From an uncultured Hormoscilla sp. (lineage in GTDB: Bacteria > Cyanobacteriota > Cyanobacteriia > Cyanobacteriales > Desertifilaceae), in the NCBI GenBank assembly GCA_963921275.4, contig OZ001293.3:3840001-3904000 (forward strand): a stretch of DNA of 64,000 nt, written 5' to 3'. The notes under the pieces were generated by a model that ran no database searches, was not told the DNA's origin, and saw nothing but the letters and a program-made list of their open reading frames with translations. Positions 35,718-61,511 of this stretch are shown here, piece after piece; position 1 is the stretch's first letter; every line of letters begins with the position of its first letter. The position numbers and the translations under genes are program-made.

Positions 35718-38700
35718 ATGAGCGACCTACAAAAACGTTTAGAAAAACTTTCTCCAGCTCAACGGGAACTGGTACTCAAAAAGCTGCAAGCACAAAAGCA
35801 AAACTTGAAGCCCCAAGCCAAAGTACCGGCGCGAGCGCCTGTTTCCAGAGACCAACCAATTCCGCTATCCTGGAATCAACAAAGACTGTGGTTTTTAGAG
35901 CAACTCGAAGGTAGCAGTTCTACATACAATATCCCGGCAGCAGTAGAGTTGGTGGGAGACCTCAACCTCACGGCCTTAGAGCAAGGGATCCAAGAAATTG
36001 TCCGACGCCATGAAGTCCTGCGGACAAATTTCACTTCTAAAGACGGACTCCCAGTGCAACAGATCGCCCCAGAGTTAAAGCTACACATAGCAGTTATCGA
36101 CCTCAAGTCAGATACCGAAGGGGATGAGGAAGTAAAGGAAAAAGCGATCGCCGAAGTGCAAAAGCCTTTCGATCTAGCAAAAGATCCCTTACTCCGGGTA
36201 ACTCTATTGCGGCGAGAGCCCTCCTCGCACGTCCTGTTGCTGACCATGCACCATATTATCTCTGATGGCTGGTCGATGGGGATATTAATTACAGAATTGT
36301 CACAGTTGTATCGGGCATTTTCGTTCCAAGCACCATCGCCCTTACCGGAACTACCATTTCAATATGCAGACTTTGCTGTATGGCAGCGGCAATGGTTGAG
36401 CGGAGAAACTTTAGAAACTCAACTAAATTACTGGAAAGAAACCCTCTCGGGGGCCCCGGAACTATTAGAATTACCGACAGACCTATCGCGTCCTCCCCTG
36501 CAGAAATTTCGCGGTAGCAGTATCAAATTTAACCTATCGGCAGAATTAACGAAAAAACTCCAAATTATAGCTGAAAAGTCCGAGGCCACCCTATTTATGA
36601 TTCTCTTCAGTGCTTTGGTGACTTTACTTTATCGCTATACCGCTCAAGAGGATATCTGTATCGGCACCCCGATCGCCAACCGGAACCGCGCCGAAACGGA
36701 ATCGCTAATTGGCTTTTTTATCAACACATTGGTATTGCGCGCGGACTTGACAGGAGATCCGACTTTTTCGGAGTTGATCGCGAGGGTGCGACAAAAGGCG
36801 ATCGATGCATACGATCGCCAGGACGTACCCTTCGAGCAAGTAGTAGAAGCTTTGCAACCCTCACGTTCTCTGAGCTACAGTCCCCTATTCCAGGTAATGT
36901 TTGCCTTGCAGAATGCACCGATGGGAGAATTAGAACTGCCCGGTCTGACTCTCAAACCCTTGGTCCAAGACAGCCTGACAGCCAAATTTGACCTGACAAT
37001 ATCCATGTGGGAAACAGACGCCGGACTGGCAGGATCCTGGGAATATAACAGTGACTTGTTCGATCGAGAGACGAGCGATCGCACCATCGGCCATTTCCAG
37101 ACATTGCTGGCCGGAATAGTAGCTAACCCCGACTGGCCTATAGGAGAATTACCTCTGCTGACTGCTGAGGAAAATCAACTATTCGAGTCGTGGAACAATA
37201 CTAAAACAAACTATCCGGCGGACAAATCTATTGGAGAACTATTTGAAAGGCAAGTCGAAAAGACCCCCGATGCCATAGCAGTAACCTACGGACGGGAACA
37301 ACTCACCTACAAACAGTTAAACTGCCGTGCTAACCAATTGGGACATTACCTGCAAGCTCGGGGTGTGGGCCCAGAAGTGCTAGTGGGTCTCTGCGTCGAT
37401 CGCTCCCTAGATGCGATCGTGGCCATGCTCGGCATTATCAAAGCTGGTGGCGCTTACGTGCCCATCGATCCAGACTATCCTCAAGACCGCATCGCCTATA
37501 TATTGTCAGATGCCCGAGTGCCAGTCTTGATTACTCAGTCTACGAGAAGAGCTAACTTGCCAGAACATCAGGCAGTTCTTGTCTGCTTAGATACAGACTG
37601 GCAAGAAATTAGCACCTGCAGCAGCGACAACATCAAAAGTGAAGTAAAACCCACTTCCTTAGCTTACCTGATCTATACATCTGGTTCTACAGGTAAGCCT
37701 AAAGGTGTAGCAGTGGTCCAGCAAGCCATCAGTCGTCTCGTGTTTGAGACCAACTACGTGCAGTTGCAGCCTACCGTGCCGGAAAAATCGGACTGCATGG
37801 CCCAAGCTTCTAATATCTCTTTTGATGCCGCCACTTTTGAAATTTGGGGAGCCTTGCTGCACGGAGCCAAACTCGTAGGCATTACTAAAGAAGTGCTGCT
37901 TTCACCTGAAGCATTGGCAAACCAGTTGCGCGAGCAAAAGATCGCGATTTTGTTTGTCACTACAGCCCTTTTCAATCAGTTGGTCAGTGTCGTGCCAGAT
38001 ATTTTCCAGCATCTGAGCACTCTCTTGTTCGGAGGTGAAGCGGTTGACCCATCCTGGGTAGCAACAGTCCTGGAAAAAGGACCGCCACGGCGACTGCTGC
38101 ACCTGTACGGACCAACGGAAAGCACGACATTCTCGACCTGGTATCTAGTAGAGTCAGTACCAGCAGGCGCAACCAACCTGCCCATTGGCAGTCCCATATC
38201 TAATACTACTATTTATGTCCTCGATCGCCATCTGCAACCCGTCCCCATTGGAGTCCCAGGAGAATTGTATATTGGCGGGGACGGTTTGGCTCGCGGTTAT
38301 CTGAACCGTCCGGAATTAACAGCCGCAAGATTTATCGATAACCCCTTTGGCAGTGGCCGTCTCTATAAAACAGGAGACTTGGTGCGTTACCTGCCAGATG
38401 GTAATATCGAATTTAAGGGTCGGATCGACAATCAAGTTAAGGTGCGCGGTTTCCGCATCGAACTGGGAGAAATTGAAGCCCTTTTGAGCAAGCACCCGCA
38501 AGTGCGAGAAGCAGTAGTCATAGTCCGGGAAGACCAACCGGGCAACAAGCGTCTGACAGGCTATGTACTCCCTTACTTAGAACCGCCAACTAGCAGTGCT
38601 TTGCGCGGCTTCCTGAAAGAAAGACTGCCCGAATATATGGTGCCAGCAGCTTTTGTGATTATGGAAGCCTTACCCTTAACCCCCAATGGCAAGGTGGAGC

Positions 38701-40463
38701 GCAAGGCGCTTCCAGCACCGGACGGACAAAGGGATGAAGACTCTGGTTTTGTCGCCCCCAGAACTCCTACAGAAGAAACATTGGCAGCTATCTGGAGCGA
38801 GATTTTGAGGGTTGAACGAGTAGGGGTTTGCGACAACTTCTTTGCCTTGGGTGGAGATTCGATCGTTAGCATTCAAATTATCGCTAGGGCCAATCAAGCG
38901 GGTTTGAAGTTGACACCCAAACAGCTATTCCAGTATCAGACGATCGCCGAATTGGCAGCAGTGGCCAGCACGACTGCCGCGAGACAAGCGACACAGGGTT
39001 TGGTGACGGGTTCGGCCCCCCTGACTCCCATTCAACATTGGTTTTTCCAGCAGGATTTACCCGCACCTCATCACTTCAATCAATCAGTCCTGTTGTCGGT
39101 GCCTCCAGACTTGCAGCCGCAGCTTTTAGAACAGGCTGTTCAAAAAATCTTAAGCCATCACGATGCCCTGCGATCGCGATTTATCGCCTCTGACACCGGT
39201 TGGCAGCAAGTTTATGCTACCCCAGACGAACAGATACCTTTCCAAGTCGCGGATCTGTCCGCTATTCCCCTCGCAGAACAGTCAGGACAGATGGAGGCGA
39301 TCGCGAATGAAATTCAAGCGAGTTTGCACCTGTCATCGGGACCGATAATGCGAGTGGTGCTGTTTCAGTTGGGGAGCGATCGGCCTGGTAGAATGCTAAT
39401 AGTCATCCATCACTTAGCAGTTGATGGCGTGTCCTGGCGCATTCTGCTAGAAGACTTGTCAACCGCTTACCAGCAGGAGGCCCTTCCGCCCAAAACTACC
39501 TCTTTCCAAGATTGGGCTAACCTGTTGACTGAATACGCGCGAACCGTTCCGGAAAAATCGGAAACAATCTCCAAAGAGTTAAACTACTGGCTAACCCAGT
39601 CGAGCACCAATATTGATTCGATCCCGGTGGACTATCCCGAGGGCAAGCAGGCCAACAGTTTTGGCTCCAGTCGCACGGTATCGGTATCATTAACGGAGGC
39701 AGAAACTCGGATCTTGCTGCAAGAAGTACCCAAGGCTTATAATACTCAGATTAATGACGTGCTGCTGACGGCATTAGTACTCAGCTTTGCCAAATGTACT
39801 GGCAGTAAATCATTGTTGGTGGACTTAGAAGGCCACGGCAGGGAAGAATTATTTGCCGATAGCGCCAGCGTAGACTTATCCCGGACTGTGGGTTGGTTTA
39901 CAACTTGTTTTCCGGTATCCTTGCAACTGGAGTCCGTTGACGATCTCTCTGATGCACTTAAATCGATCAAAGAGCAGCTGCGGAGCATACCTTCTAAAGG
40001 AATTGGTTATGGCCTCCTGCGCTATCTCAGTTCCGATGCGGCCACCCGCCAGACACTGGCAGATCAAACCCCATCTGAAATTAGTTTTAACTATTTAGGT
40101 CAATTTGCCGCTTCTAATGGGTTGCGATCGGGTACGATGGCATGGGGTATAGTGAGGGAAGCAACCGGCGAAAATCACAGTCCATTAGGTATTCGCGCTC
40201 ATCTACTGGATGTTAACGGATTAGTAGTTGCCGGACGGCTGCAAATGGATTATATTTACAGTGAAAACGTTCATCAACGAACAACTGTCGAACGCCTGGC
40301 TAAAACCTTTATAGAGACCTTAAAGTCCCTGAGCGACCACTGCACAGCACCGGAGGTGGGAGGCGATACCGCTTCAGACTTCTCGGCAGCAAGGTTAAAT
40401 CAACAACAGCTAGACAGTTTCCTGGCCAAAATCAAGAAACCCAAATCTGAGAAGAAAAAATAA
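35718..40463 (+). CDS. NRPS module 4: C(LCL-like)-A(Ile-like)-T-E
   Basis: HHIISDGWS, manual code DAFFLGLTFK, T motif GGDSI, E domain HHLAVDGVSW and EGHGRE. Confidence 0.93.
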   Translation: MSDLQKRLEKLSPAQRELVLKKLQAQKQNLKPQAKVPARAPVSRDQPIPLSWNQQRLWFLEQLEGSSSTYNIPAAVELVGDLNLTALEQGIQEIVRRHEVLRTNFTSKDGLPVQQIAPELKLHIAVIDLKSDTEGDEEVKEKAIAEVQKPFDLAKDPLLRVTLLRREPSSHVLLLTMHHIISDGWSMGILITELSQLYRAFSFQAPSPLPELPFQYADFAVWQRQWLSGETLETQLNYWKETLSGAPELLELPTDLSRPPLQKFRGSSIKFNLSAELTKKLQIIAEKSEATLFMILFSALVTLLYRYTAQEDICIGTPIANRNRAETESLIGFFINTLVLRADLTGDPTFSELIARVRQKAIDAYDRQDVPFEQVVEALQPSRSLSYSPLFQVMFALQNAPMGELELPGLTLKPLVQDSLTAKFDLTISMWETDAGLAGSWEYNSDLFDRETSDRTIGHFQTLLAGIVANPDWPIGELPLLTAEENQLFESWNNTKTNYPADKSIGELFERQVEKTPDAIAVTYGREQLTYKQLNCRANQLGHYLQARGVGPEVLVGLCVDRSLDAIVAMLGIIKAGGAYVPIDPDYPQDRIAYILSDARVPVLITQSTRRANLPEHQAVLVCLDTDWQEISTCSSDNIKSEVKPTSLAYLIYTSGSTGKPKGVAVVQQAISRLVFETNYVQLQPTVPEKSDCMAQASNISFDAATFEIWGALLHGAKLVGITKEVLLSPEALANQLREQKIAILFVTTALFNQLVSVVPDIFQHLSTLLFGGEAVDPSWVATVLEKGPPRRLLHLYGPTESTTFSTWYLVESVPAGATNLPIGSPISNTTIYVLDRHLQPVPIGVPGELYIGGDGLARGYLNRPELTAARFIDNPFGSGRLYKTGDLVRYLPDGNIEFKGRIDNQVKVRGFRIELGEIEALLSKHPQVREAVVIVREDQPGNKRLTGYVLPYLEPPTSSALRGFLKERLPEYMVPAAFVIMEALPLTPNGKVERKALPAPDGQRDEDSGFVAPRTPTEETLAAIWSEILRVERVGVCDNFFALGGDSIVSIQIIARANQAGLKLTPKQLFQYQTIAELAAVASTTAARQATQGLVTGSAPLTPIQHWFFQQDLPAPHHFNQSVLLSVPPDLQPQLLEQAVQKILSHHDALRSRFIASDTGWQQVYATPDEQIPFQVADLSAIPLAEQSGQMEAIANEIQASLHLSSGPIMRVVLFQLGSDRPGRMLIVIHHLAVDGVSWRILLEDLSTAYQQEALPPKTTSFQDWANLLTEYARTVPEKSETISKELNYWLTQSSTNIDSIPVDYPEGKQANSFGSSRTVSVSLTEAETRILLQEVPKAYNTQINDVLLTALVLSFAKCTGSKSLLVDLEGHGREELFADSASVDLSRTVGWFTTCFPVSLQLESVDDLSDALKSIKEQLRSIPSKGIGYGLLRYLSSDAATRQTLADQTPSEISFNYLGQFAASNGLRSGTMAWGIVREATGENHSPLGIRAHLLDVNGLVVAGRLQMDYIYSENVHQRTTVERLAKTFIETLKSLSDHCTAPEVGGDTASDFSAARLNQQQLDSFLAKIKKPKSEKKK

Positions 40464-42463: not shown

Positions 42464-42819
42464 TTCACCAGAGATATTAAAGTCCTCGATCGCTCAGAAA
42501 TGCGGTGACTGTGTCCATTGACAGGAAATGCACCTCATTTTTGCAAAAACACACTTGTTTGAAGGCTGGAACCCTTATTATATTCTTACCTGAGTTGCAG
42601 AAACCCGGTTTCTTATCTGTATGATTAGACAACTACTTTTGACCACACCCTCTTGATAATGACCTTAGAGGTTGCTATCATAGAGAAGTAAAGGCTGAGT
42701 AGGTGAGATGGGAGAAGTGATAACGGTGGGTGGCATAATAACCAGCCATGAATGATGGACAGAGAGACCCATAGAGTAACAGAATAAAGTTGAGAGAATT
42801 GAAAAAGGAGAGTACAATA

Positions 42820-45036
42820 ATGGACAATAAGTGGGAGCAATCGAATAAAGCATACAATATCGGTGACATAGTTGTATTTGAAGGTCGAAGATATAAGTGT
42901 ATCCAGGCTCATACAACTAACGGCGATTATAACTGGAATCCAGCAACTGCTCAAAGTTTGTGGGCACAGTATACGAGGCAATCAACTTCACAGGGGCAAT
43001 TAACTTCACAAGACATAGAAGAATTCAAGAAGAAATTCAACGAACGGAGGCAGTTCTATAAGATCCCAGGAGCAGCATTAGGGATTGTCCAAAATGGTCA
43101 AGCGATCGTGCAAGAAGGATTTGGTAAGCGAAATCTAGAATCTTCTTCAGCTGATGTGACAAAAGAAACGATTTTCGCCATAGGTTCAATGAGCAAGTCA
43201 TTGACAGCTTTGATGATCGGCACCCAAGTAGAGGCTGGTTTATATAATTGGGATACTCAAGTTAGTCAAATTAGTCCAGTGTACAAATTTAATCAATACA
43301 AGGAAATAACGGTAGCTGATTTATTGGGCATGCATTCCGGTCTAGAGGGGGCATTGAATTTTCAATATATCGATCTCGGGAAGAATCTGTTTGGTTATAA
43401 TGCCAGATACTGGAACGAACAAACGCCAATTTATCTGATAGAAAATCTCTCCTATTTGCCAGCTCCAAAAGGCAAAAAAGGGGAATATTTATACAATAAC
43501 GAATTATTTGCAAGCGGGGGTTATCTGACGCCGTTGAAAAACAAAAAGCCCACATCCCAATTATTGCAAGAATATAGGAAATTAATGCAGGATAAAGTAT
43601 TTAAGCCTATTGGTATGACAAGCACCAACATTACGGGGATGTTATCAAGTGTTAGCGATAACTATGCAATCAGCTACGGTCTGGACATGAGTGGGGGGGA
43701 AGCCAAAATTTTTAACAAAGGTGGGATCAGTATTAGCGATATTAATGGCGTGGCCCCAGCCGGTCAGGTGGTTACCAACGTTGAAGATATGAACCGTTAC
43801 CTGATTACCCTTTTGAAAGGCGGATGCAACCCCGAGGGCTCTCAAGTGATTAAGTCTGAAACTTTGCAGAAACTTTGGGATATACAAGGCAAGACCCTTA
43901 AAGACAATAGTAATAAGGAGGGGATTACGGGGAAGACAACCTACGGAATGGGTTGGTGGGTAGAAAAAATTTCCCGGAAATCTAATCCGAACGAAATCGT
44001 CACAGTCAAGCATCATGGCGGTTATTTACCATCTTGGTCCTGCATGCAGATGCTAGTTCCAGAGCAAAATGCTGGCATGGTGATTCTCACCAATAGTTGT
44101 TTTGGTCGGGAGTTTACGATGGAAATGAATCAAGAGCTGCTTAACTTGCTCTATAACTCAGATTTCAACAAAGACATTTTTATTGACAATCAAAAATATC
44201 ATGAAGGATTTCTGACAAAGTTAAAGGAGGCAATAGCCCAAAAAGTGTCAATAGCGGTACAAGACGAAAACAAAGTAGCAGAGGAAAAGAAAAAAGCTGA
44301 GAAGATTATAGGTAATTATGAAGGGGGGTGGAATTTAAATTATGATTCGGTAGATAAATGCTTGGTGCTGTATAAACAAGGCTGGATTGCTCGCTTGGCT
44401 CCTTCTAAAAATCCTGGCGATAAATATGTCTATTACATGGTAGCGTCGAACGATCACAGGGGAATGCACGTCACAAACAAAGAAGATATTTATGGAGCCG
44501 GTAAAATTTGGTTTACAAAAATTAAGGATATGAATAATATCGATCTGATGATGTATGGGGCAAAAGTTGGAGCAATCAAGAAATTGCCAGAGACGTCAAC
44601 AAAGAAGACAATATCTGAAATATTAGAATCGGAATATGACAAAGAGCGGTTTCAGCAGCTCAAAAATATATATTATCAAGAATGCGCAAAAAAACAATTG
44701 AGGGATATTATTGAGTTATTTTCAGATGACAAGAAATTACTGAATTTAAAACAGGAAAAAAAAGATGCGGTGAAAAAGAAGTTGGAGGAGGCGAAAAAAG
44801 AATTAGAGTCGGCCATTGGTAATATCACAGGGTCTTCACCAACAGAAGCAGCAGCAGCAGAGCAGCAGACGAACGAAAAAATCTCGATGATTATTTTAGA
44901 CGACGGTGACACCGAAATCACACCGGTGGAAGAAGTAACAATAATCTTAGATGATATTCCTGATAACAGCGAAAGTGACACCGAAATATCACTGGAAACA
45001 ACAATTGAGTTAATGAGAGAGATGCAAAGGGATTAA
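42820..45036 (+). CDS. CBM5/12 (chitin-binding type 3-like) domain fused to a beta-lactamase-fold serine hydrolase with an acidic C-terminal tail
   Basis: N-terminus W...AYNIGDIVVFEGRRYKCIQAHT...WNPATAQSLW. Motifs SMSK (SxxK), YNN and HHGG. RBS AAGGAG precedes ATG 42820. Confidence 0.87.
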   Translation: MDNKWEQSNKAYNIGDIVVFEGRRYKCIQAHTTNGDYNWNPATAQSLWAQYTRQSTSQGQLTSQDIEEFKKKFNERRQFYKIPGAALGIVQNGQAIVQEGFGKRNLESSSADVTKETIFAIGSMSKSLTALMIGTQVEAGLYNWDTQVSQISPVYKFNQYKEITVADLLGMHSGLEGALNFQYIDLGKNLFGYNARYWNEQTPIYLIENLSYLPAPKGKKGEYLYNNELFASGGYLTPLKNKKPTSQLLQEYRKLMQDKVFKPIGMTSTNITGMLSSVSDNYAISYGLDMSGGEAKIFNKGGISISDINGVAPAGQVVTNVEDMNRYLITLLKGGCNPEGSQVIKSETLQKLWDIQGKTLKDNSNKEGITGKTTYGMGWWVEKISRKSNPNEIVTVKHHGGYLPSWSCMQMLVPEQNAGMVILTNSCFGREFTMEMNQELLNLLYNSDFNKDIFIDNQKYHEGFLTKLKEAIAQKVSIAVQDENKVAEEKKKAEKIIGNYEGGWNLNYDSVDKCLVLYKQGWIARLAPSKNPGDKYVYYMVASNDHRGMHVTNKEDIYGAGKIWFTKIKDMNNIDLMMYGAKVGAIKKLPETSTKKTISEILESEYDKERFQQLKNIYYQECAKKQLRDIIELFSDDKKLLNLKQEKKDAVKKKLEEAKKELESAIGNITGSSPTEAAAAEQQTNEKISMIILDDGDTEITPVEEVTIILDDIPDNSESDTEISLETTIELMREMQRD

Positions 45037-45133
45037 AATTGGAAAAAGAGATCTTGTAGGACTGCCCAGATCCCATGTCAGTTGTCAATTGCTTTGTATA
45101 GACATTAATTATGGTCTCCTGCGCTATCTTAGT

Positions 45134-45247
45134 TAAGTAATAGGACAAAATTAATTGCATTAGCTTGCGGGAGCAGTTCCTGCGTTGCAAGGGTTTCCTG
45201 CGCTCCGGCACCCAGGCGATGTGTAATTAATTTTGTCTAACTACTTA
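45134..45247. mobile_element. MITE-like inverted-repeat element
   Basis: TAAGTAATAGGACAAAATTAATTGCA...TGTAATTAATTTTGTCTAACTACTTA imperfect TIRs. Confidence 0.65.
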
Positions 45248-45302
45248 GCAGAAACTGAAGTCATGGCTCTTTGGAATGGTTTGTCTTTACTTTTTTAGTA
45301 TA

Positions 45303-46321
45303 ACCTAAGTTGCGACCTATTAAAAAAAATATGAATTACCCACTTAGACTTTACAGATATTTGGGATATTTCGTAGCTTTTGATACAAAATTATATTTTT
45401 TTTGTGCTAGACGGCGGGTTGGCTGTTTATAGGTTATAATGTACTAAAATAATAGTTAATTGCTGGGGGATGTAGATGATGGAAGATATGATTACAACAA
45501 TTTTTGTTCTTTGTGACGAGCTACTAAAAGCGTTAAATATAAAAGAAGATCCACAAGTAAAAATGAACAATGCCGAAGTGATGACAGTCGGATTAGTTGC
45601 TGCATATTTTTTCGGAGGACACCACGATCGCTCTTGTCAATTTATGGTCGAACACAAGTATATAAAAAATCTGTTAAGTAAAAGTAGGTTCAATCGTCGA
45701 TTACACAATATTGACGAACCAATTTGGATGTTTTTCTTCCAAGTTATAGCGTTATAGCTCAAACATTTAAAGAGCTCAATCCGGGTCAAGAATATATTCT
45801 TGATAGTTTCCGGTGCCAGTATGTGATAATATTAGGATTGATAGATGCCAAATTTATAACAAGGAAGAATATCGAGGGTATATTGCCAGTAAAAAACGTT
45901 ATTTTTATGGATTAAGAGTTCATATGTTGGTAAACAAAAATGGAAAGCCAATAGAATTTTATCTAGATCCTGGTAGTTATAATGATTTTAAAGTTTTACA
46001 ATCTTTTGGCTTTGACTTACCATCAAATTCAATAGTTTATGGAGATAAAGCTTATAATGATTATCAATTAGAGGATTTACTAAAAGAGTCGTCAAGTATA
46101 ATGTTAAAACCTTTGCGAAAAAAGAACTCAAAAAGAAAAGAATATTCTTGTTTTGAATATATACAAAAAGTAACAAGAAAACAAGTTGAAACCTGTTTTA
46201 GTCGAATCACCAATTTGTTTCCCAAGTCAATTCATGCTGTTACATCTAAGGGATTAGAGTTGAAAATAATTCTCTTTATCATAGCTTTTTGTATCCAATT
46301 TTTATAGGTCGCAACTTGAGT
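45303..46321 (+). mobile_element. IS982-family insertion sequence, transposase frameshifted into three pieces
   Basis: TIRs ACCTAAGTTGCGACCTAT / ACTCAAGTTGCGACCTAT, 7-bp TSD TAGTATA. Motifs LSKSRFNRRL, RGYIASKKRYFYG, YGDKAY, RKQVETCFS. An 8-bp duplication (gttatagc) causes one frameshift. Confidence 0.93.
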
Positions 46322-46385
46322 TAGTATAGAACCCGAAGAGCTTTTCTGTATGACTGGTGCTAAAAGCTACTTTCCAAACATCCTC

Positions 46386-46823
46386 TCAGAAGAAAAAATA
46401 CCAGACCCCGGACTTGACAACGAGGAATGGAGATGGCTATAGTAGAGAAGAAGCTTGTGAATGTTGGGCAGAGCAACGGCTGGCTAAGGCATTTACCTCC
46501 AGACATTAAAGTCCCCGATCGCTGCGCAGCACCGGAAGTGGGAGGATATCCTGCTTCAGACTTCTCCGCAGCAAGGTGAAATCAACAACAGCTAGACAGT
46601 TTCCGGCAAAAATCAAGAAAGCCAAATCTGAGAAGAAAAAATAACAGACAGGGACTTGACAACGAGCTGAGAGATGGCTATCGTAGAGAAGTAGCTTGTG
46701 AATGAAGGGCGGCTGAAGGGCTGGCTAAGACATTCACCAGAGACCGAGACGTCCCCGATCGCTGCACAGCACCGGAAGTGGGAGGCGATACCGCTTCAGA
46801 CTTCTCCGCAGCAAGGTGAAATC
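46386..46823 (+). repeat. Two diverged copies of the 239-bp promoter/NRPS-tail unit
   Basis: TTGACA at 46414 (N18-TATAGT) and 46656 (N17-TATCGT), plus gcttcagacttctc...gcaagg blocks. A remnant gcagctagacagttt resumes at 47051. Confidence 0.88.
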
Positions 46824-46855
46824 TGACCAAAATTAAATAAATCAGAGGGGGAAAA

Positions 46856-47044
46856 ATGACAGAAGCAAATGGGAATTCACAACAAGCAGCAGAAAAGGAG
46901 GCTAAAGATGTTAGGAATAGGCGTCCTGCCGATCCCAGAATAATTTCGGTAAAGCGCTCAAATATTCCTAAAATCAGCGAACGGAAGATTAGAGTTTCAA
47001 AGGAAACAATGCGTTACTTAATTCGGAGCCTGCAATTGGATTAA
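46856..47044 (+). CDS. 62-aa protein whose C-terminus matches the C-terminus of the adjacent hydrolase
   Basis: RBS GAGGGGG. PKISERKIRVSKETMRYLIRSLQLD compared with PKASERQIKVSKETTRYLLRNLQLD. Confidence 0.65.
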   Translation: MTEANGNSQQAAEKEAKDVRNRRPADPRIISVKRSNIPKISERKIRVSKETMRYLIRSLQLD

Positions 47045-47095
47045 ACCATAGCAGCTAGACAGTTTTCAGGGAAAAACAAGAGAGAGGTCACAATC

Positions 47096-48892
47096 ATGAC
47101 AGCAGCAAAAAAAACTTTATCATCACAACAAATCGAAGATTTCAAGAAGAAATTCAACGAACGGAGGCAGTTCTATCAGATCCCAGGAGCAGCATTAGGG
47201 ATTGTGCAAGATGGTCAGGTTACTGTGTCTGAAGGGTTTGGGGTGCGAGACTTGCAGACACAGACTCCCATGACAGCAAAAACGATTTTCAACATAGGTT
47301 CAATGAGTAAGTCATTGACAGCTTTGATGATCGGCACCCAAGTGGATGAGGGTTTATATGCCTGGGATACTCCAGTGAGTGAAATTAGCTCGCAGTACCG
47401 CTTTCCCTCTGTACTCGCTTACGAACCAACGGTGACAGATTTAATGGGAATGGCTTCTGGTATAGATGGTGCGCTCAACCCTTATGCCATAATTCCCGAT
47501 CCCAACGATCCTAGTACTGCGATTATAGGTGCTAATGGAACACTTTGGAATGACCAAACGGCAATCTATACTATCAAAAACATCCAATTTTTGCCATGCG
47601 ATCCAGCCGATAAAGGGAAACATATCTACAACAATGAGTTGTATGCAAGCGCTAGTTATCTGACGCCGTTGAAAGAAAACAGGCCAACATCCCAATTGCT
47701 GCAAGCTTATAAGCAATTAATGCACGAGAAAGTATTTGATACCATTGGCATGGCAGATACCGCAATGTCTGGTACTTTGTCAAGTGTTAGCGACGACTAT
47801 GCCATCAGCTACGGCCTAGACATGAGTGACGGACAAGCAAAAACTTTTGATAAAGGTGCAGTCAGTATTAACTATATCAATGGTGTGGGCCCAGCCGGTC
47901 AGGTGGTTTCCAACGTTGAAGATATGAACCGTTACCTGATCACCATTTTGAATAACGGAGTCAACCCCGATGGCGTCGCAGTGATTAATGCTGACACTCT
48001 ACAGCAACTTTGGAATATAGAAGGCAAGGAAACTAAAACAAATCGTTATGATGCGGGGATTACGGGGACGATAACCTACGGAATGGGTTGGTGGGTAGAA
48101 GACATTCCCCGGAAATCTAATCCGGACGAAATAGTCACAGTCCGGCATCATGGCGGTTTCTTACCATCTTGGGCCTGCATGCAGATGCTAGTTCCAGAGC
48201 AAAATGTGGGCATGGTGATTCTCACCAATGGTTCTTTTGGTCGGGAGTTTACGATGGAAATGAATCAAGAGTTGCTTAACTTGCTCTATGACTCAGATCT
48301 AGACAACTTCATTGACAATGAAGCCCTTTATACTAAGTTTGTGTCGGACTTAGAAACGACAATGCCAGAGAAAGTGTCTTCATATACGGTCGTTTACGAA
48401 GACGTAGAGATGCTCCTCGGTAATTATGAAGGGCTATGGACTTTAGAGGTGGATGGAGATAATCGCTTGGTCTTGTTTAAGAACGGCTGGATTTATCACT
48501 TGTATCCTTCTCGAGAAGATCCCTTATTTATCTATTACATAGGAGCATCGAACAATCACAGGGGCATGAGGGTAAGAGAATCAAGCGATCCCGACATAGA
48601 TCCGCTTGAAGGAGCAAAAATTTGGTTTGTTGAAGACGAGCAAGAGGTCATTAACATGATTGGACCTCAAATTGGAGGGGTCAAGAAATTGCCTAATCTA
48701 TTAGAATCCGATGAGTTAAATAGATTAATCCTCAGTATCTTAGGTGATAAATCCTTTCCCCCCGCTCCCCCCGCCCCCGCTCCCCCCGCTCCCCCCGCTC
48801 CCCGTATGAGAGCTCCTAAAGCCAGCGAACGTCAGATCAAAGTCTCGAAGGAAACGACACGTTACTTACTGCGGAACCTGCAATTGGATTAA
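47096..48892 (+). CDS. Beta-lactamase-fold serine hydrolase, paralog 2, with Pro-rich linker and C-terminal tag
   Basis: IGSMSKS, IYNNE, HHGGF; PPAPPAPAPPAPPAP linker before the terminal motif. Confidence 0.9.
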   Translation: MTAAKKTLSSQQIEDFKKKFNERRQFYQIPGAALGIVQDGQVTVSEGFGVRDLQTQTPMTAKTIFNIGSMSKSLTALMIGTQVDEGLYAWDTPVSEISSQYRFPSVLAYEPTVTDLMGMASGIDGALNPYAIIPDPNDPSTAIIGANGTLWNDQTAIYTIKNIQFLPCDPADKGKHIYNNELYASASYLTPLKENRPTSQLLQAYKQLMHEKVFDTIGMADTAMSGTLSSVSDDYAISYGLDMSDGQAKTFDKGAVSINYINGVGPAGQVVSNVEDMNRYLITILNNGVNPDGVAVINADTLQQLWNIEGKETKTNRYDAGITGTITYGMGWWVEDIPRKSNPDEIVTVRHHGGFLPSWACMQMLVPEQNVGMVILTNGSFGREFTMEMNQELLNLLYDSDLDNFIDNEALYTKFVSDLETTMPEKVSSYTVVYEDVEMLLGNYEGLWTLEVDGDNRLVLFKNGWIYHLYPSREDPLFIYYIGASNNHRGMRVRESSDPDIDPLEGAKIWFVEDEQEVINMIGPQIGGVKKLPNLLESDELNRLILSILGDKSFPPAPPAPAPPAPPAPRMRAPKASERQIKVSKETTRYLLRNLQLD

Positions 48893-49010
48893 AACTGGAT
48901 TTGCATCAAAGACTATACTCTCTAGCTTTGTTAAGTAAGTAGTCAAAAGGGATGGAATGAAACCAGGTTTCTTGTCCAAACCAGGTTTCTAGTACAGCCT
49001 TGCTGTAGTA

Positions 49011-51016: not shown

Positions 51017-54000
51017 ATGAATGATATTGAAGACATTTACGAATTAAGCCCTATGCAGCAGGGGATTCTGTTCCACAGTCTTTACGAACAGAGTGATGGC
51101 ATGTATTTCCATATGCTAGCTTGGACTTTGGAAGGCCCGTTGAATGTAGATGCTTTCAAGCAAGCGTGGCATCAAGTTGTGGCTAGACACGCGGTGTTGC
51201 GGACTTCTTTCCACTGGCAAGAGTTGGAAAAACCCCTACAGGTGGTTCATTCTACGATCGAGTTGCCTTGGCTAAATATATCCTGGCAGGGAAAGACTGA
51301 GTTAGAAGAGAAGCGATCTGCCTTTATAAAGGCAGATCGCAGCCAAGGTTTTGAACTGGATGAAGCCCCCTTGATGCGCTGTGCTTTGATAGAGTTAGGC
51401 TCCGATCGCTACGAATTTGTCTGGAGTCTGCATCATCTGTTGCTTGATGGTTGGAGTATGGCGATCGTCCTGAAGGAAGTGTTTGAGTTATATGAGGCGA
51501 TCGCAGTGGGGAAAGATTTATATTTACCGCCCCCGCTCCCCTTCCGAGAGTATATCACTTGGTTGCAAGAGCAAGACTTGTCCCAGGCGAAAGCATACTG
51601 GCAACAAACCCTCCAGGGCTTTAAGATGCCTACTGTCATGCCTGGCATTCAGGGGCCAAAAAATCATCAAACCCATTACCAGGAGCAACATTTTAATTTA
51701 GCCGCAAGTACTACCAAGGCGTTACAGTCTTTAGCTCGCGCAAATGGTTTGACATTAAGTACAATTTTACAGGGTGCCTGGGCCCTACTGCTAAGTTGCT
51801 ACAGTGGGGAGTCAGATGTTGTCTTTGGAGTTACGGTTTCCGGTCGCCCGCCTTCTTTATCGAGAGTAGAATCGATGGTGGGGGTGTCGATCAATACATT
51901 ACCAATGCGCGTGCAACTGCCTGATTTGTCGTTTCCGACAGCAGGGGAACTATGGCCTTGGTTGAGAAAGTTGCAGGCCCAGCAGGTAGAACAGCAACAA
52001 TACTCCTTTATGCCTCTGGTGGAAATTCAAACTCTGAGTGAAGTACCCCAAGGTATGTTTGAGAGTATTGTGATTTTTCAGAACTATCCGATAGATCCTG
52101 TCAGCACCAGGCAGGGAGACTTGCAAATAGGTCAAATTAAAGGGACTGGACATACTAATTATCCCCTGACAGTCATGGCCAGTCCAGGTGCGGAATTGTC
52201 AGTACGGATAAAGTATGATGGCACTCGCTTTCACCTCAAGACCATAAGCTCGATCGCCAGAGACTTACAATTGGTATTAGAGGCGATCGCGACTAATCGA
52301 GAGCCCCAAATTGCTTCATTAATCACCAAGTTGCATAAATTGGGCAAACCGCTTAAACTGCAACAGCTGGAAGTGGCGTTGATGTCTGCTCCTGAAGTAG
52401 AAGATTGTTACATATTAGAACGAGAAAACACCATAGTTGCTTATGTAGTATTATCATCTGCATTGACGGAGCCAGAAAAACTCAATAATCATTTGCAAGC
52501 TCAACTCTATACTTACCAAGCACCAGATGTATATGTAAAAATATCGGCTTTACCCCTGACAGATACAGGAGAAATTGACGAAGTGGCCCTGGGGCGAATA
52601 CCGGTCTTGGATGAGGAGTTGGCACAACGCTGGGAAAAACAACTGCAAGAACTGCCAGAAATTGAGCGCGTAGCGGTGGTCGTTCGACCTGAAACTAAGA
52701 GTTTACCACCCTTACATTTATCTGACTTACTACCCCAAGTAGGGTGGGCACCGCCCACCAACGGCACCGCCCACCAACAGGCGGTTTCCGGTGATGACAT
52801 CACGCCAGTCCCAGAAAGCCAAGTGGCGATCGCCAAGGCCCGATCGCGGGAAATGGCCATCAGTCACGGAGGACCGCTAGAATATCGACAAGATTGGCCG
52901 CGTACCCTTGCAGAACTATTGCCAGTGGCGGCCCTCAAAAGCAGTCAGAAGATCCTATACATACAGCGGGATGGTACGGAGTTATGGCAATCCTATGGGG
53001 ATTTACTTCAAAAGGCCCAAAGCATAAATGGGGGTTTGAAAGCACTAGGTCTCCAGCCCCAAGATAAGGTAATACTGCAACTTAAACATCCCCAAGATTT
53101 TATTCCGGCATTTTGGGGCTGCATTCTGGGAGGGTTTGTACCGGTACCCCTGGGTGTAGCCCCTACTTATAGCCAAGTCAATAATGCGGTGCAGAAATTG
53201 CAGAATGCCTGGCAGATGCTAGAAAAGCCGTTCGTCTTGGCAAGCGCAGAACTGGTGCAGGCGATCGCTTCTTTGTCAGAACTTCTGGGTTTAGAGAATT
53301 TGCAAGTAGAAAGCTGCGATCGCCTGGGAGAGTACGACCCAGAACCGAATTATCATCTGAGTCAGCCAGAGGATTTAGCAATATTACTTCTAACGTCTGG
53401 AAGTACGGGCATGCCAAAGGGAGTTATGCTGAGTCATCGGAATATCTTAAGTAGCGTTGCGGCCACCTCGGAAGTCAGCCAATTGACCCGAGAAGATATA
53501 TCACTCAATTGGCTTCCCCTAGACCATCCCGGGCCTCTGATTCGCTGCTGTATCCGCTGCGTATTCCTCGCTTGCCAACAAATACACGCACCCACAGATC
53601 TGGTTTTACAAGATCCGCTAATCTGGTTTGATTGGTTGGAACGCTATGGGGTGACGAGTACTTGGAGTCCTAATTTTGCCTTTACCCTCGTTAACGATCA
53701 AGCCGCTGAAATTAAACAGCGGAGGTGGAATTTGTCTGCTGTCAGGTCTTTGTTGAATACTGCCGAACCCATTGTGCCCCAAACTGCACAAAGATTTTGG
53801 GAATTATTTGCCGGGCATCAGTTAGCTGCCCGGGCCATGCATTCTTCTTGGGGCATGGCAGAAACTGCTTCCGGGGTGACTTTTTCCGATCAGTTTTTGC
53901 AGGTCAACCCGACCCAGACTTCTTTTGCCGAATTAGGACTTCCCATCCCCGGGGTTTCTTTGCGCATCGTTAATGGGGAAAATGAAGTGATAGAATGCGG

Positions 54001-57000
54001 GGCGATCGGCTATTTACAAGTCAAGGGGGAAACGGTCACGCGGGGTTATTATCACAACGAGGAACTCAATCGGGAAGTCTTTACTACAGATGGCTGGTTT
54101 GCTACAGGGGATATCGGATTTATACAGGAGGGACGCTTAACGATTACGGGACGGGAAAAAGATGTGATTATTATTAATGGAGTTAATTATTACAGTCACG
54201 AAATTGAAGCGGCGATCGAAAAACTGCCAGAGATTGAACTGTCATACACGGCAGCGGTATCTGTAGAAGGAGATAAGTTGGCGGTCTTTTTCTCGACTCC
54301 ATGCAAGGATAGCCAGTTGCGGAACAAATTAGCAGAGATTCAGCAGCAAGTGGTCAGTCAAATTGGCATTAAACCCGATTATTTACTTCCCGTACAGAAG
54401 ACAGTCATTCCCAAAACTTCCATTGGCAAAATTCAGCGATCGCAACTCAGTCAGGCTTTTGCAGCTGGGGAATTCAAGGAGATTCTCAAACAAGTAGATA
54501 TCCTGTTAGAAAATGCTAACACCCTTCCCGACTGGTTTTACCGCCAAGTATGGCAAGCAAAACAAGTGCGCCGATTGCAGGAATTGTCAGCAGGACTAAC
54601 ATTAATATTTGTCGATTCATTAGGCTTGGGGGATTATATCGGCGAGCGACTGCTAGAGGAAAAGCAAGAGATTATTAAAGTATCGGTAGGGTCGGAATTT
54701 GTTCAAGTAAGTGCCGATCGCTACAGGCTCGACCCCCAAAAAGCAGAACATTATCAACAGTTGCTAGAAACTATAGCAGCTGCAAAGATTTATCTGATTC
54801 TACATTTGTGGAATTACACCGAGGATCGGGGGAAAATTTCCAGTCTGGCAGAATTAGAAAAAGCTCAAAATACCGGAGTTTACAGTTTACTATTCCTCGT
54901 CCAAGCCTTGGCCAAGGTGCAAGGCGATCGAGATGAAGTCCAGTTGCTATGGATTTCCAGTCATAGCCAGTCCGTAGAAGCAACTGAGGAGATCGCATGG
55001 GAAAAATCCTCAGTTATGGGATTGCTGAAAACGGTACCTCAAGAAATGCCCATGTGGAACTGTCGTCATGTCGATTTAGCTGTCGATCTAGCTGTCGAGG
55101 GAGTGGAAGTAAACGGGGATAATATTCTGGCGGAGATGCAGGATCCAACGGGAGAACCAGAAGTAGCCTATCGCCACGGACAGCGTTTAGTTATCCGTCT
55201 GGAACGAGTCAAATGGTCGGGCAAATTAGGCCAAGCAATACCTTTTCAGAAAGGCGGTAGCTATCTGATTACTGGCGGACTGGGAGGCATAGGGGTAGAA
55301 ATTGCTAAATACCTGCTGGAACATTATCAAGCCAGGTTACTATTGGTGGGTAGAACCCCCCTACAGACAGAGAAACTAGCAGCTATAGAGCAATTACAGC
55401 AGCTGGGTGGGACTGTAATTTATGAAACAGTCGATATCTGCGATCGCCCGAGGATGTCAGCCATCATATCGGACTGGGGCGAGTTAGATGGGATCGTTCA
55501 CTTAGCAGGTGTAGCCCATGACAGTTTGCTAGTAGAAGAAATCCACTCAGGATTTGCCACCGCCTTGCAAGGGAAGGTGTATGGCACCTGGGTACTGCAC
55601 CAATTGATTAAAGATCGCCCCGATTGTCTTTTTATCAACTTCTCTTCTGTCAACGGCTTTTTTGGCGGGACAACAGTAGGCGCTTATGCTGCGGCCAACA
55701 GTTTCCTGGATGCTTTTTCTGACTATCAAAGAAACCACAGTCAGTTACATAGCTATTGCTTTGCTTGGAGTATGTGGGACGAAACTGGCATGAGTCGCGG
55801 CTATCAAATGAAAGAACTCAGTCACGCACGCGGTTACTATCCCATTGGTAAGCAGCAAGGAATTAAATCTTTTTTGGCCGGCATGAGTTGGGGTCCGACA
55901 AGGTTGGCCATCGGTTTAGATGGCAGCAAGGCCAATATACAGCGCTATCTACCTGCATGTGACGGCTTAGAAAAATTAACAGCCTATTTTACTGGCACAG
56001 TACCCGCAAGTCTGCCGCAACCACCATCCGATCGCTACGGCACTCCTACCCCCTGGGAGTTAACGCCAGTACCGGAAATGCCCCTTACCGATAGCGGTGA
56101 AATAGATTTGCACAAGCTAGCAGGAAAAATTACATCCCTTAAAACAGGCGATCGGGTAGGGCCCCGGAACGAGATCGAACTTGAAATTGCACAGATCTGG
56201 CAAGAAGTGCTGGCAATCGATCATATAGGCATTTATGATAACTTCTTCCAATTGGGAGGACATTCGCTGCGTGTACTCCAAGTCATCTATCGCTTGCAGA
56301 ACTTTTTTGCTGTAGACTTACCCTTGCAAAGCCTCTTTAATACTCCTACTATTGCCAGTTTAGCCGCAGCAATTGCACGGCAGCATCCCCAGCAAGCCAA
56401 CTCTAGCCTAGTTCCCATTCAGCCAAAGGGGAAGCGATCGCCCTTTTTCTGCGTCCATCCCGTGGGTGGTAATGTGCTGTGCTATGCCAGTCTAGCCCGC
56501 CATCTGGGAGAAGAACAGCCATTTTATGGACTGCAATCACTAGGTCTGAATGGAGAAGAAGAACCCCTGACCAGTCTGGAAGACATGGCAACCCATTATA
56601 TTCAGGCCATTCAGACTATGCAGCCCTCCGGTCCCTATTATATAGGCGGCTGGTCTTTAGGAGGAGCGATCGCTTTTGAAATGGCCCAACAGTTGTCAGC
56701 ATCAGGAGAAGAAATAGGGTTGCTAGCATTGCTGGACAGCTACACGCCTCAAGTAATCGCTCGGGTCAACGACCAACGTAAGGGCCTATTGTCGCAAATG
56801 TTAAATGTAGCGCTTGATGATGCCACCTTAGCTTCCTACTACTTCGCCCAAGACCTGGGTAGTCTTTTAGGAAAAGAGCTGCAAATATCAGTGGAGCAGC
56901 TACAGCAACTAGATCTAGATGCACAGTTGACATATATCTTGGAGCAGGCTAAGATAGAGAAAGTTATACCACCCGAGCTAGGACTAAGGCAAATTCGTCG

Positions 57001-57229
57001 CCTGTTCCAGGTATTCCAGGCCAACATCCAAGCGCGGCTTCACTATCGCCCCCAACCATATGCGGGTCGGATAGTCCTGTTTCTTGCTAGCGAACAAACG
57101 GTGGAGGACGATCGAGGTTGGGACAGTCTGGCAATAGGAGGGATAGAGAAACACTTGATTAATGGAGGACATTACCAGCTGATCGAAAGTCGGATTCTGG
57201 GAGAGAAACTCAAGGTTTATCTAGCCTAA
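51017..57229 (+). CDS. Terminal depsipeptide module: C(DCL-like)-pseudo-Asub-A(alpha-keto acid)-KR-T-TE
   Basis: HHLLLDGWS. A-subdomain remnant before the A core (LPLTDTGEID). LTSGSTGMPKG, and WLPLDHPG lacking the amino-binding Asp. KR motifs TGGLGGIG and YAAAN. T motif GGHSL. TE motif GWSLG. Confidence 0.9.
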   Translation: MNDIEDIYELSPMQQGILFHSLYEQSDGMYFHMLAWTLEGPLNVDAFKQAWHQVVARHAVLRTSFHWQELEKPLQVVHSTIELPWLNISWQGKTELEEKRSAFIKADRSQGFELDEAPLMRCALIELGSDRYEFVWSLHHLLLDGWSMAIVLKEVFELYEAIAVGKDLYLPPPLPFREYITWLQEQDLSQAKAYWQQTLQGFKMPTVMPGIQGPKNHQTHYQEQHFNLAASTTKALQSLARANGLTLSTILQGAWALLLSCYSGESDVVFGVTVSGRPPSLSRVESMVGVSINTLPMRVQLPDLSFPTAGELWPWLRKLQAQQVEQQQYSFMPLVEIQTLSEVPQGMFESIVIFQNYPIDPVSTRQGDLQIGQIKGTGHTNYPLTVMASPGAELSVRIKYDGTRFHLKTISSIARDLQLVLEAIATNREPQIASLITKLHKLGKPLKLQQLEVALMSAPEVEDCYILERENTIVAYVVLSSALTEPEKLNNHLQAQLYTYQAPDVYVKISALPLTDTGEIDEVALGRIPVLDEELAQRWEKQLQELPEIERVAVVVRPETKSLPPLHLSDLLPQVGWAPPTNGTAHQQAVSGDDITPVPESQVAIAKARSREMAISHGGPLEYRQDWPRTLAELLPVAALKSSQKILYIQRDGTELWQSYGDLLQKAQSINGGLKALGLQPQDKVILQLKHPQDFIPAFWGCILGGFVPVPLGVAPTYSQVNNAVQKLQNAWQMLEKPFVLASAELVQAIASLSELLGLENLQVESCDRLGEYDPEPNYHLSQPEDLAILLLTSGSTGMPKGVMLSHRNILSSVAATSEVSQLTREDISLNWLPLDHPGPLIRCCIRCVFLACQQIHAPTDLVLQDPLIWFDWLERYGVTSTWSPNFAFTLVNDQAAEIKQRRWNLSAVRSLLNTAEPIVPQTAQRFWELFAGHQLAARAMHSSWGMAETASGVTFSDQFLQVNPTQTSFAELGLPIPGVSLRIVNGENEVIECGAIGYLQVKGETVTRGYYHNEELNREVFTTDGWFATGDIGFIQEGRLTITGREKDVIIINGVNYYSHEIEAAIEKLPEIELSYTAAVSVEGDKLAVFFSTPCKDSQLRNKLAEIQQQVVSQIGIKPDYLLPVQKTVIPKTSIGKIQRSQLSQAFAAGEFKEILKQVDILLENANTLPDWFYRQVWQAKQVRRLQELSAGLTLIFVDSLGLGDYIGERLLEEKQEIIKVSVGSEFVQVSADRYRLDPQKAEHYQQLLETIAAAKIYLILHLWNYTEDRGKISSLAELEKAQNTGVYSLLFLVQALAKVQGDRDEVQLLWISSHSQSVEATEEIAWEKSSVMGLLKTVPQEMPMWNCRHVDLAVDLAVEGVEVNGDNILAEMQDPTGEPEVAYRHGQRLVIRLERVKWSGKLGQAIPFQKGGSYLITGGLGGIGVEIAKYLLEHYQARLLLVGRTPLQTEKLAAIEQLQQLGGTVIYETVDICDRPRMSAIISDWGELDGIVHLAGVAHDSLLVEEIHSGFATALQGKVYGTWVLHQLIKDRPDCLFINFSSVNGFFGGTTVGAYAAANSFLDAFSDYQRNHSQLHSYCFAWSMWDETGMSRGYQMKELSHARGYYPIGKQQGIKSFLAGMSWGPTRLAIGLDGSKANIQRYLPACDGLEKLTAYFTGTVPASLPQPPSDRYGTPTPWELTPVPEMPLTDSGEIDLHKLAGKITSLKTGDRVGPRNEIELEIAQIWQEVLAIDHIGIYDNFFQLGGHSLRVLQVIYRLQNFFAVDLPLQSLFNTPTIASLAAAIARQHPQQANSSLVPIQPKGKRSPFFCVHPVGGNVLCYASLARHLGEEQPFYGLQSLGLNGEEEPLTSLEDMATHYIQAIQTMQPSGPYYIGGWSLGGAIAFEMAQQLSASGEEIGLLALLDSYTPQVIARVNDQRKGLLSQMLNVALDDATLASYYFAQDLGSLLGKELQISVEQLQQLDLDAQLTYILEQAKIEKVIPPELGLRQIRRLFQVFQANIQARLHYRPQPYAGRIVLFLASEQTVEDDRGWDSLAIGGIEKHLINGGHYQLIESRILGEKLKVYLA

Positions 57230-58942: not shown

Positions 58943-59028
58943 TAATCACTCATGATGGGCATCTCTTGACTTGATGTCTATCTTCGAGTGACAGCATGAA
59001 GTTGAGGGATTTGCATAAGGAGAGTAGA

Positions 59029-60573: not shown

Positions 60574-60601
60574 TTTGGTAATTAGACATAAGCCTTCTGA
60601 T

Positions 60602-60640
60602 GACCTCAGACCTCAGCCATTGACGCTGATGTCTGAGGTC
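60602..60640 (+). terminator. Hairpin after hydrolase 4 (repeated at 63085-63123)
   Basis: GACCTCAGACCTCAGC...GCTGATGTCTGAGGTC. Confidence 0.55.
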
Positions 60641-60803
60641 TGATAGCTAAATAATGACAATTATCTGGCGTAAGCTGTCGTGCATTTAAATTGCATAGCT
60701 TCAGATCCTTGCTCTCTATGACTTTCCCAATGCAAGAATTTTGAATGAGAGAATTTTGAATTGCTTAGAGACTGGTGAGGGAAAAAATCAGGCGATCGAA
60801 GGC

Positions 60804-60832
60804 TTGACAGTATGATGATTGTTGGCTATAGT
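60804..60832 (+). promoter_or_regulatory. Sigma70-type promoter (repeated at 63287-63315)
   Basis: TTGACA-N17-TATAGT. Confidence 0.65.
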
Positions 60833-60874
60833 ATTTTGTGACCTATAAATTTGGCCAGCTCTGTAAGTTCAAAT

Positions 60875-61330: not shown

Positions 61331-61511
61331 AAGGAAAGGAAAACAAAGTTGACTTCTACATTGATTCTGTCTGGGGAGTCACCATGACATCTGCGATGGG
61401 AGAAGTGAAACGCTGGGCGGCATAATAATCACTCATGATGGGCATCTCTTGACTTGATGTCTATCTTCGAGTGACAGCATGAAGTTGAGGGATTTGCATA
61501 AGGAGAGTAGA

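Follow-up and report, generated by a model that had tools for sequence, protein, structure and literature searches.

The window analysed here is a 64,000-nucleotide stretch of an uncultured Hormoscilla sp. (contig OZ001293.3, positions 3,840,001 to 3,904,000), in which Pfam assignments reveal a cyanobacterial hybrid cluster of non-ribosomal peptide synthetase (NRPS) and polyketide synthase (PKS) genes. Two genes encoding beta-lactamase-fold serine hydrolases (hydrolase 1 and hydrolase 2) and an open reading frame (ORF) of 62 amino acids, which we refer to as the microprotein, lie between two NRPS genes of this cluster, and all three end in a common short peptide, the tag. The order of features is an NRPS gene of domain composition C-A-T-E, a series of tandem 239-bp units, hydrolase 1, an insertion sequence (IS), two degenerate copies of the 239-bp unit, the 62-residue ORF, hydrolase 2, a gene for a membrane GDSL-like protein, a second NRPS gene (C-A-KR-T-TE) and three hydrolase paralogs that lack the tag (Table 1).

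The tag comprises 25 residues with the consensus P-K-x-x-D/E-x-x-I-x-I/V-S-x-E-T-T-R-Y-L-x-x-N-M/L-Q-L-D-COOH. When the sequence was re-read, the C-termini of hydrolase 1, hydrolase 2 and the microprotein were exactly as quoted in the first-pass annotation of this DNA, and TAA directly follows each of them. The shorter consensus proposed at that stage, (I/V)SxETxxxLxRxxQxD, was run as a strict regular expression and matched these three tags only in all six frames of the window. A hidden Markov model (HMM) built from seven tags identified nine sites in the window and three related loci at E <= 2e-13, the next match having E = 1.2.

The two carrier enzymes differ in the segment that precedes the tag. 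Hydrolase 1 consists of a CBM5/12 module (PF02839, E=1.3e-13), a beta-lactamase-fold serine hydrolase domain (PF00144, E=9.2e-37), a beta-barrel domain and a helical, acidic linker of ~124 residues; comparison with a database relative (P0006) suggests that its true start is probably the ATG at 42820. Hydrolase 2 contains the hydrolase domain (PF00144, E=3.7e-45) and the beta-barrel domain, followed by a short helix and a Pro/Ala linker with a poly-Pro/Ala stretch and a tandem 9-nt repeat (48757-48804). Both linkers had been described in these terms, and the tagless paralogs had likewise been set apart correctly, as they end ~60-150 residues sooner, directly after the beta-barrel domain. Among 13 sequences S69 and K72 are nearly invariant, and Y178, N180, H352, G353 and G354 are invariant; the SxxK, YxN and HxG positions are kept, which places the proteins with the beta-lactamase/S12-type enzymes. 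The nearest folds in a Foldseek search are 2qmi (E=1.6e-22), which is Pab87, a self-compartmentalising octamer according to the title of the PDB entry, and Lip3 (9sn1, E=2.4e-19), with ClbP at rank 24 and SurE at rank 32 (6ksu, E=4e-16, 14% identity), while sequence identity to the nearest solved folds is 14-20%. The tagged hydrolases form a small cyanobacterial clade of S12-like serine hydrolases that are cytoplasmic in appearance.

A genome scan with the hydrolase alignment yielded three further loci, in a Tolypothrix (L001), a Microcoleus and a cyanobacterial metagenome-assembled genome (L002 and L003 being the latter two loci). These encode four tagged-type hydrolases, two of them in the Tolypothrix, and the tag occupies the extreme C-terminus in 6/6 tagged-type hydrolases when those of the window are included. 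A tagged-type hydrolase gene is located just upstream of a C-A-KR-T-TE gene in all four clusters, and downstream of a C-A-T-E gene in the window, L001 and L002; the L003 sequence begins at the hydrolase and shows only the downstream C-A-KR-T-TE gene. When the last 169 residues of hydrolase 2 were used as a database query, eight proteins were retrieved, all of them PF00144 members. Seven of the eight end in QLD, two of these with the variant ...ETTR(A/E)IADPENQLD, and the eighth (P0005, on a 1.8-kb contig) follows the motif to ETTRYLRR and then diverges.

The nine DNA-verified copies of the tag align without gaps over 33 residues, with invariant P, S, L, Q and D, and the stop codon always follows Q-L/R-D. 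Mean pairwise identity is 0.63 in the hydrolase body, 0.23 in the linker and 0.53 in the tag, taken as the last 25 residues (11 hydrolases, 55 pairs, leaving out a tagless paralog and P0004, whose identity to hydrolase 2 is 98%). Judged from these alignments, the tag is an island of conservation behind non-conserved linkers. The linkers fall into two length classes, of 38-47 and 124-191 residues, and both tether classes co-occur in the two genomes that also possess free, body-less copies of the tag (termed mini ORFs below).

The tag is a family-specific C-terminal peptide. A profile of the nine tags was searched exhaustively against 1.84 billion representative proteins and gave six matches at E <= 0.001, namely the 62-residue ORF of the window, two free proteins of 59 residues (P0012 and P0015), a 47-residue piece, a 115-residue piece and a hydrolase of 597 residues; in this set the tag was found in no other protein family. 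With this distribution, confined to one hydrolase family and its mini derivatives, the tag is not a general signal. No Pfam family or PDB chain matched the tag, the best Pfam score (AbrB_C, E=0.23) being below that family's cut-off, and the ESM Atlas gave no usable match. A word-index search with the 62-residue ORF returned only itself at near lengths and nothing longer, by a method that is blind to a 25-residue match and also missed hydrolase 2. No description of this cluster, of the tag or of the mini-protein was found in the literature, which is not proof of absence.

The microprotein is a hydrolase cassette from which the whole catalytic body is missing. Its residues 1-17 align with the N-terminus of hydrolase 2, and its middle (DVRNRRPADPR...) resembles by eye the linkers of short-tail hydrolases, for example that encoded at L001 9983-11803. 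The end of the second degenerate 239-bp unit, which is itself a copy of the NRPS tail, provides the ribosome-binding site and start of the ORF, and NRPS-tail DNA resumes at its stop codon (local alignment score of 37 against the NRPS 3' end, reached by 0/500 shuffles). Since an NRPS tail is found before the micro ORF and again from its stop, the locus is a tandem series of cassettes, each consisting of an NRPS tail and a hydrolase, and the microprotein is a cassette that retains the leader, the start, the first ~12-17 residues, the spacer and the tag. The first-pass annotation had placed the gene inside a remnant of the 239-bp unit; NRPS-tail copies do flank it, but the arrangement is one of tandem cassettes and not of an insertion into a unit. 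The two promoters that it had noted ahead of the gene correspond to promoter-like sites in the degenerate units, TTGACA-18-TATAGT (46414-46443, 11/12 positions) and TTGACA-17-TATCGT (46656-46684, 10/12), and these are pattern matches only, of which there are 13 in 45000-49100 compared with 9.2 +/- 2.9 in shuffled sequence. By eye the tag also resembles the NRPS 3' end (DTASDF...QLD and ETTRYL...QLD), and an origin by copying from there was considered and rejected, as the alignment scores are at shuffle level (reached by 402, 361 and 288 of 500 shuffles for the window tags and by 201 and 204 of 500 in L001 and L002) and the only NRPS-tail DNA there is that which starts at the micro stop codon.

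Copies without the body are found repeatedly in other genomes. In the Tolypothrix locus a local search with the tag HMM revealed another two ORFs for a free tag, both located after a hydrolase and behind an NRPS-tail remnant; residues 1-12 of each are identical to those of the hydrolase next to it. The leader ...CAAAA..AATAAATCA.AGG.G.AAAAAAT(G/T)ACAGA, which includes a Shine-Dalgarno-like motif, is common to the window ORF and these Tolypothrix ORFs. The database proteins P0012 and P0015 are free versions that start with M, and P0015 shares 63% of residues with the window ORF across the full length. All five mini ORFs align end to end and are open from a hydrolase-type start to the tag, although their identity to the window ORF ranges from 63% to about 32% and there are in-frame length changes, including an insertion of 22 residues. 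The microprotein is one of a recurring set of ORFs with a start codon and not a one-off scar. It had been conceded at first pass that the ORF might be the remnant of a further paralog with a motif that occurs nowhere else; derivation from a hydrolase paralog is indeed indicated, whereas the motif does occur elsewhere, in other genomes and in database relatives. The spacers of the Tolypothrix type resemble by eye those of long-tail hydrolases and the window type those of short-tail hydrolases, and for this reason the body may have been lost more than once, or tails may have been exchanged. In the Tolypothrix, several hundred nucleotides of a decayed NRPS E-domain end precede each extra hydrolase cassette (L001 12280-13190 and 15699-16240), so that the logic is that of the window with a longer duplicated piece.

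Table 1. Features of the tagged hydrolase locus (window coordinates unless a related locus is named)
Feature	Position	Strand	Basis or remark
NRPS C-A-T-E, with COM-donor-like C-terminal tail	35718..40463	+	Pfam, termini; same order in L001 and L002
Nine tandem 239-bp units, 99% identity	40314-42464		Copies of the 3' end of the C-A-T-E gene (last ~120 nt) plus spacer
Hydrolase 1	42790..45036	+	Long-tail type
Tag of hydrolase 1, PDNSESDTEISLETTIELMREMQRD-COOH	44959..45033	+	Most divergent copy; HMM 48 bits
IS between hydrolase 1 and the micro cassette	45301..46323	+	25-nt terminal inverted repeats
Degenerate 239-bp units (two), both containing a promoter-like site	46395..46826	+	DNA alignment to the unit, promoter scan
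Shine-Dalgarno-like GAGGGGG, 4 nt ahead of the micro ATG	46845..46851	+	
62-residue microprotein: hydrolase-type N-terminal stub (MTEA...), middle, tag	46856..47044	+	
Tag of the microprotein	46967-47041	+	C-terminus of the 62-residue ORF
NRPS-tail remnant starting at the micro stop codon and providing hydrolase 2 with its leader and ribosome-binding site	47045..47095	+	
Hydrolase 2	47096..48892	+	Short-tail type
Tag of hydrolase 2	48815-48889	+	C-terminus of hydrolase 2
NRPS C-A-KR-T-TE, with COM-acceptor-like N-terminus	51017..57229	+	Pfam; found in L001, L002 and L003
Tagless hydrolase paralogs	57407..63056	+	Pfam, alignment
Mini ORF, Tolypothrix	L001 16090-16332		ATG start; 81 residues
Mini ORF, Tolypothrix	L001 12034-12210		ATT at the start position

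Structure prediction suggests that the tag is an autonomous element. In an AlphaFold2 model of hydrolase 2 (13-sequence alignment; mean predicted local distance difference test, pLDDT, of 73) the linker scores 39-48 and the tag 71-81, with a helix at residues 585-596. When the microprotein was modelled alone (six sequences), residues 1-30 scored 47-55 and the tag 83-88, with a helix at residues 49-61. Because the tag scores higher in the microprotein alone, its confidence in hydrolase 2 is independent of the body. A short helix is predicted for the last 12-13 residues and comes after a non-helical P-K...I-x-I/V-S stretch, and the linker-tethered helix that had been envisaged for these proteins accords with the models, in which a low-confidence linker lies ahead of it.

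At the nucleotide level the signals are mixed. Codon analysis gave a non-synonymous difference (pN) of 0.14-0.49 in the tag, equal to or above the 0.10-0.31 of the body, and does not show classical purifying selection on the tag, and the synonymous difference of the tag is below that of the body in 14/15 pairs. For L002 and L003 the synonymous difference is 0.15 in the tag and 0.60 in the body (P = 1.5e-4), and in distant pairs identical residues use the identical codon in 13/14 cases in the tag, compared with 55% in the body (P = 0.003); these statistics draw on ~15 synonymous sites and on pairs that are non-independent. In addition, 6-9 nt past the stop codon (TAAACCATA) are common to six of the nine copies. 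The low synonymous difference could reflect either nucleotide-level constraint or gene conversion. The case for a function at the level of the peptide is therefore made from the fixed stop codon, from residues that do not vary, from the difference between tag and linkers and from frames that stay open, and not from the ratio of non-synonymous to synonymous substitution (dN/dS).

An enzyme with a long, variable tether that ends in a helix has the layout of a recruitment or docking peptide, and the two NRPS subunits are the only partners encoded beside the tagged hydrolase, which suggests tethering to the assembly line. We infer, as the most likely though still tentative reading, that the tag is a tethered helical docking peptide to the NRPS assembly line and that the free mini-protein competes for the same site. 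The hydrolase would then be anchored by a flexible tether, with the tag as its binding end, to one fixed protein partner; this is most likely the NRPS assembly line, whose genes lie on either side. From one anchor point the short- and long-tail hydrolases could reach carrier-bound or nascent intermediates that contain D-residues, and the mini-protein, by occupying the site, would titrate or regulate recruitment of the hydrolase. Analogy with the fold relatives offers a lead that the hydrolases may act in cleavage, editing or off-loading at the D-residue from the C-A-T-E module.

Several observations weigh against this interpretation. Inspection of the termini shows that each assembly-line subunit junction has its own plausible docking pair, and the tag has no match among known docking families, Pfam models or PDB chains. 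We considered whether the tag might mimic the cluster's own donor docking elements and found no support for this, as hhalign comparison of the tag profile with the tails of the C-A-T subunits and with those of the C-A-T-E (COM-donor) subunits gave a probability of 0.5% in both cases. The pN values and the low synonymous difference of the tag described above must be counted here also, as must the distribution of the mini ORFs, which are lacking in L002 and L003 (two of the four genomes with a tagged hydrolase). Furthermore, one of the three mini ORFs visible as DNA has no ATG, and the Tolypothrix pair differs by 10 non-synonymous changes and one synonymous change in the spacer, compared with five and two, respectively, in the tag; it is the spacer counts that are unfavourable.

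These same features of the mini ORFs would be accounted for if they are non-functional by-products of duplication and deletion whose tags are kept by gene conversion, the tag being functional on the full-length hydrolases. We regard this as doubtful, though as a serious contender. The region is rich in rearrangements, with nine tandem 239-bp units, an IS and NRPS-tail remnants before each cassette; the ATT in place of ATG in one Tolypothrix copy, the spacer counts and the absence of mini ORFs from two of the loci are in keeping with it, and the unusual likeness of the tags at synonymous sites is as expected from gene conversion. Yet all five mini ORFs are open from start to tag despite their divergence and in-frame length changes, and the Shine-Dalgarno-like leader is conserved between the window and the Tolypothrix. 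P0015 and P0012, both with an M start, are separate representatives of clusters formed at the 50% level, and conversion of the tag would not keep a start codon and an open spacer.

A different function is proposed if the tail is a sorting signal, for C-terminal export, targeting to a membrane or compartment, or degradation, and not an element that docks to the synthetase. Sorting signals usually take the form of a C-terminal peptide behind a disordered linker, and hydrolase 1 and the L003 and P0006 relative contain CBM5/12 with no N-terminal signal peptide recognisable by eye. Characterised relatives that cut peptides at D-residues are exported, the S12-like DL-peptidases Lip3 and Lip7, which act on non-ribosomal peptides, having Sec signal peptides (PMC12903863). 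We nevertheless consider this explanation improbable, as the tag is limited to one enzyme family, unlike general sorting signals, a free mini-protein consisting of a signal only would have no obvious role, and no transporter gene was found by Pfam among the scanned ORFs of the window.

It is also conceivable that the partner of the tag is the hydrolase itself, the tag serving as a plug or pseudo-substrate in cis or in the assembly of subunits, with the mini-protein acting as an inhibitor or cap in trans. The closest structural relative, Pab87, is a self-compartmentalising octamer, and in the model of hydrolase 2 the tag is predicted with much more confidence than the linker, residue 575 being marked as a beta bridge. 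This seems quite improbable to us, however, since the predicted confidence of the tag is even higher without the body. Finally, the notion that the conserved unit is DNA or RNA, as a translated cis element at the 3' end of the cassette with a role in recombination, processing or regulation, would accommodate the synonymous statistics, the shared codons and the nucleotides kept past the stop, but is very improbable, as RNAalifold found 0 conserved pairs across the nine copies and Rfam gave 0 matches at E <= 1 in 40000-51000, every copy retains the frame and the fixed stop codon, the invariant residues are spaced like a helix cap with a hydrophobic stripe, and the statistics are those of ~15 synonymous sites in non-independent pairs.

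The reading as a docking peptide to the assembly line can be compared with the NRPS docking classes named in a review of docking domains, which are COM, PAX and the beta-hairpin/short linear motif (SLiM) type (PMC9113145). Like NRPS and PKS docking elements, the tag is a short, extreme C-terminal peptide behind a flexible stretch in an assembly-line cluster, and like COM donors it is predicted to be helical. Unlike these elements it is found on a stand-alone hydrolase and not on a synthetase subunit, and free-standing copies exist. The COM-donor-like tail of the cluster is on the C-A-T-E protein, whereas the tag ends hydrolases and mini-proteins, and the hhalign comparison sets it apart from both COM donors and PAX-type helical tails. 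SLiMs are disordered, have fewer than 15 residues and bind a beta-hairpin domain, in contrast to the 25 residues and predicted helix of the tag; the window contains one such domain (TubC_N, PF18563), and the protein that precedes it ends in ...EEIEI. By position and by sequence the tag appears to fit none of these classes. It could represent a new docking class for trans-acting enzymes, in which one helix on two tether lengths addresses one site on the synthetase and a tag-only protein acts as titrator, although we consider this more elaborate proposal unlikely.

With regard to the enzymes, the carrier hydrolases share their fold and two-domain layout with Lip3/Lip7, ClbP and SurE. SurE-type enzymes, stand-alone off-loading thioesterases of the PBP type with a lipocalin-like domain, are encoded by a gene that follows an NRPS module ending in an epimerisation domain, and in the window, L001 and L002 the gene for the tagged hydrolase likewise follows such a module. 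SurE-type systems have a last module without TE, whereas in all four loci here the line continues with a further module that includes a TE. ClbP is a membrane protein, and unlike ClbP and Lip3/Lip7 the tagged hydrolases show no recognisable signal peptide or membrane anchor. In the accessible parts of the literature none of these enzymes is reported with this tail. The tag also recalls two other kinds of element. Its basic arm, alternating hydrophobic stretch and N-capped helix are reminiscent of the N-terminal half of ribbon-helix-helix proteins, from which it differs in having a single predicted helix after a strand-like stretch and no Pfam or PDB match, and a putatively amphipathic helix on a poorly conserved linker is reminiscent of encapsulation and targeting peptides, although no shell or compartment genes were found among the scanned ORFs of the window. 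The kind of element proposed is already known, as a terminal recruitment peptide in a megasynthase cluster; the naturally free copies are what is unusual.

It is largely an open question by what means stand-alone enzymes for tailoring, editing and off-loading reach the correct NRPS carrier domain, and portable docking tags are wanted for pathway engineering. A tag that is short, autonomous and family-specific, that is borne on linkers of very different length and that also occurs naturally free provides a hypothesis that is concrete and cheap. Were it to bind the synthetase, a docking type would be added together with a possible competitive regulator, and if it defines a new docking class the cluster would possess a built-in regulator of editing or off-loading. 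Should it bind no synthetase, the microprotein would still be a clean example of a gene reduced to a terminal interaction peptide.

Free ORFs of another type are present in the tandem 239-bp units upstream of hydrolase 1. Each unit contains a promoter-like TTGACA-N17-TATCAT, recognised by eye, and an ORF of 61 residues with a GTG start, the C-terminus of which is the COM-donor-like tail of the NRPS; such free 'docking-tail' mini ORFs would be a counterpart of the free tag ORF. Downstream of hydrolase 1, ~100 nt past its stop codon, a 26-nt inverted repeat (45134-45247, 85% complementary, with a 62-nt spacer) could be a terminator-like hairpin or the end of a small mobile element. The terminal inverted repeats of the ~1-kb IS (45301-45325 and 46299-46323) are 88% complementary, and its DDE transposase is spread over three overlapping frames (45476-45757, 45724-45915 and 45813-46307), the last of which matches PF13612/PF01609, so that the gene appears to be either frameshifted or decayed.

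The tagless paralogs consist of a split copy (57407-57985/57998-58942), an intact copy (58996-60573) and a second copy that is 100% identical to the latter (61479-63056). The split copy, probably a pseudogene, comprises two ORFs of 192 and 314 residues with the break in the middle of the PF00144 domain. L003 has an intact relative past its TE gene (10865-12010, truncated by the end of the locus), and this tagless-type protein is 51% identical. The identical copies are part of a tandem duplication of 2483 bp (58699-63964, 100% identity), which includes the tagless hydrolase and an ORF of 159 residues (60851-61330/63334-63813). The latter has a ...WETWADN... stretch in common with a protein of 386 residues encoded past the TE gene in L002 (18746-19906), and the 159-residue ORFs may therefore be fragments.

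Two membrane-anchored SGNH/GDSL-like proteins are encoded in the cluster, at 34466-35707 and 49011-50195. The former, which has no Pfam match, is 67% identical to the product of L002 3946-5100 and is absent from between the NRPS genes of L001. Short ORF-like segments are repeated at 5200-5980 and 12400-14500, in the gap ahead of the first NRPS gene and in the one that separates this gene from the PKS gene, and near-identical peptide stretches recur in them; these segments look like dispersed repeats or decayed mobile DNA.

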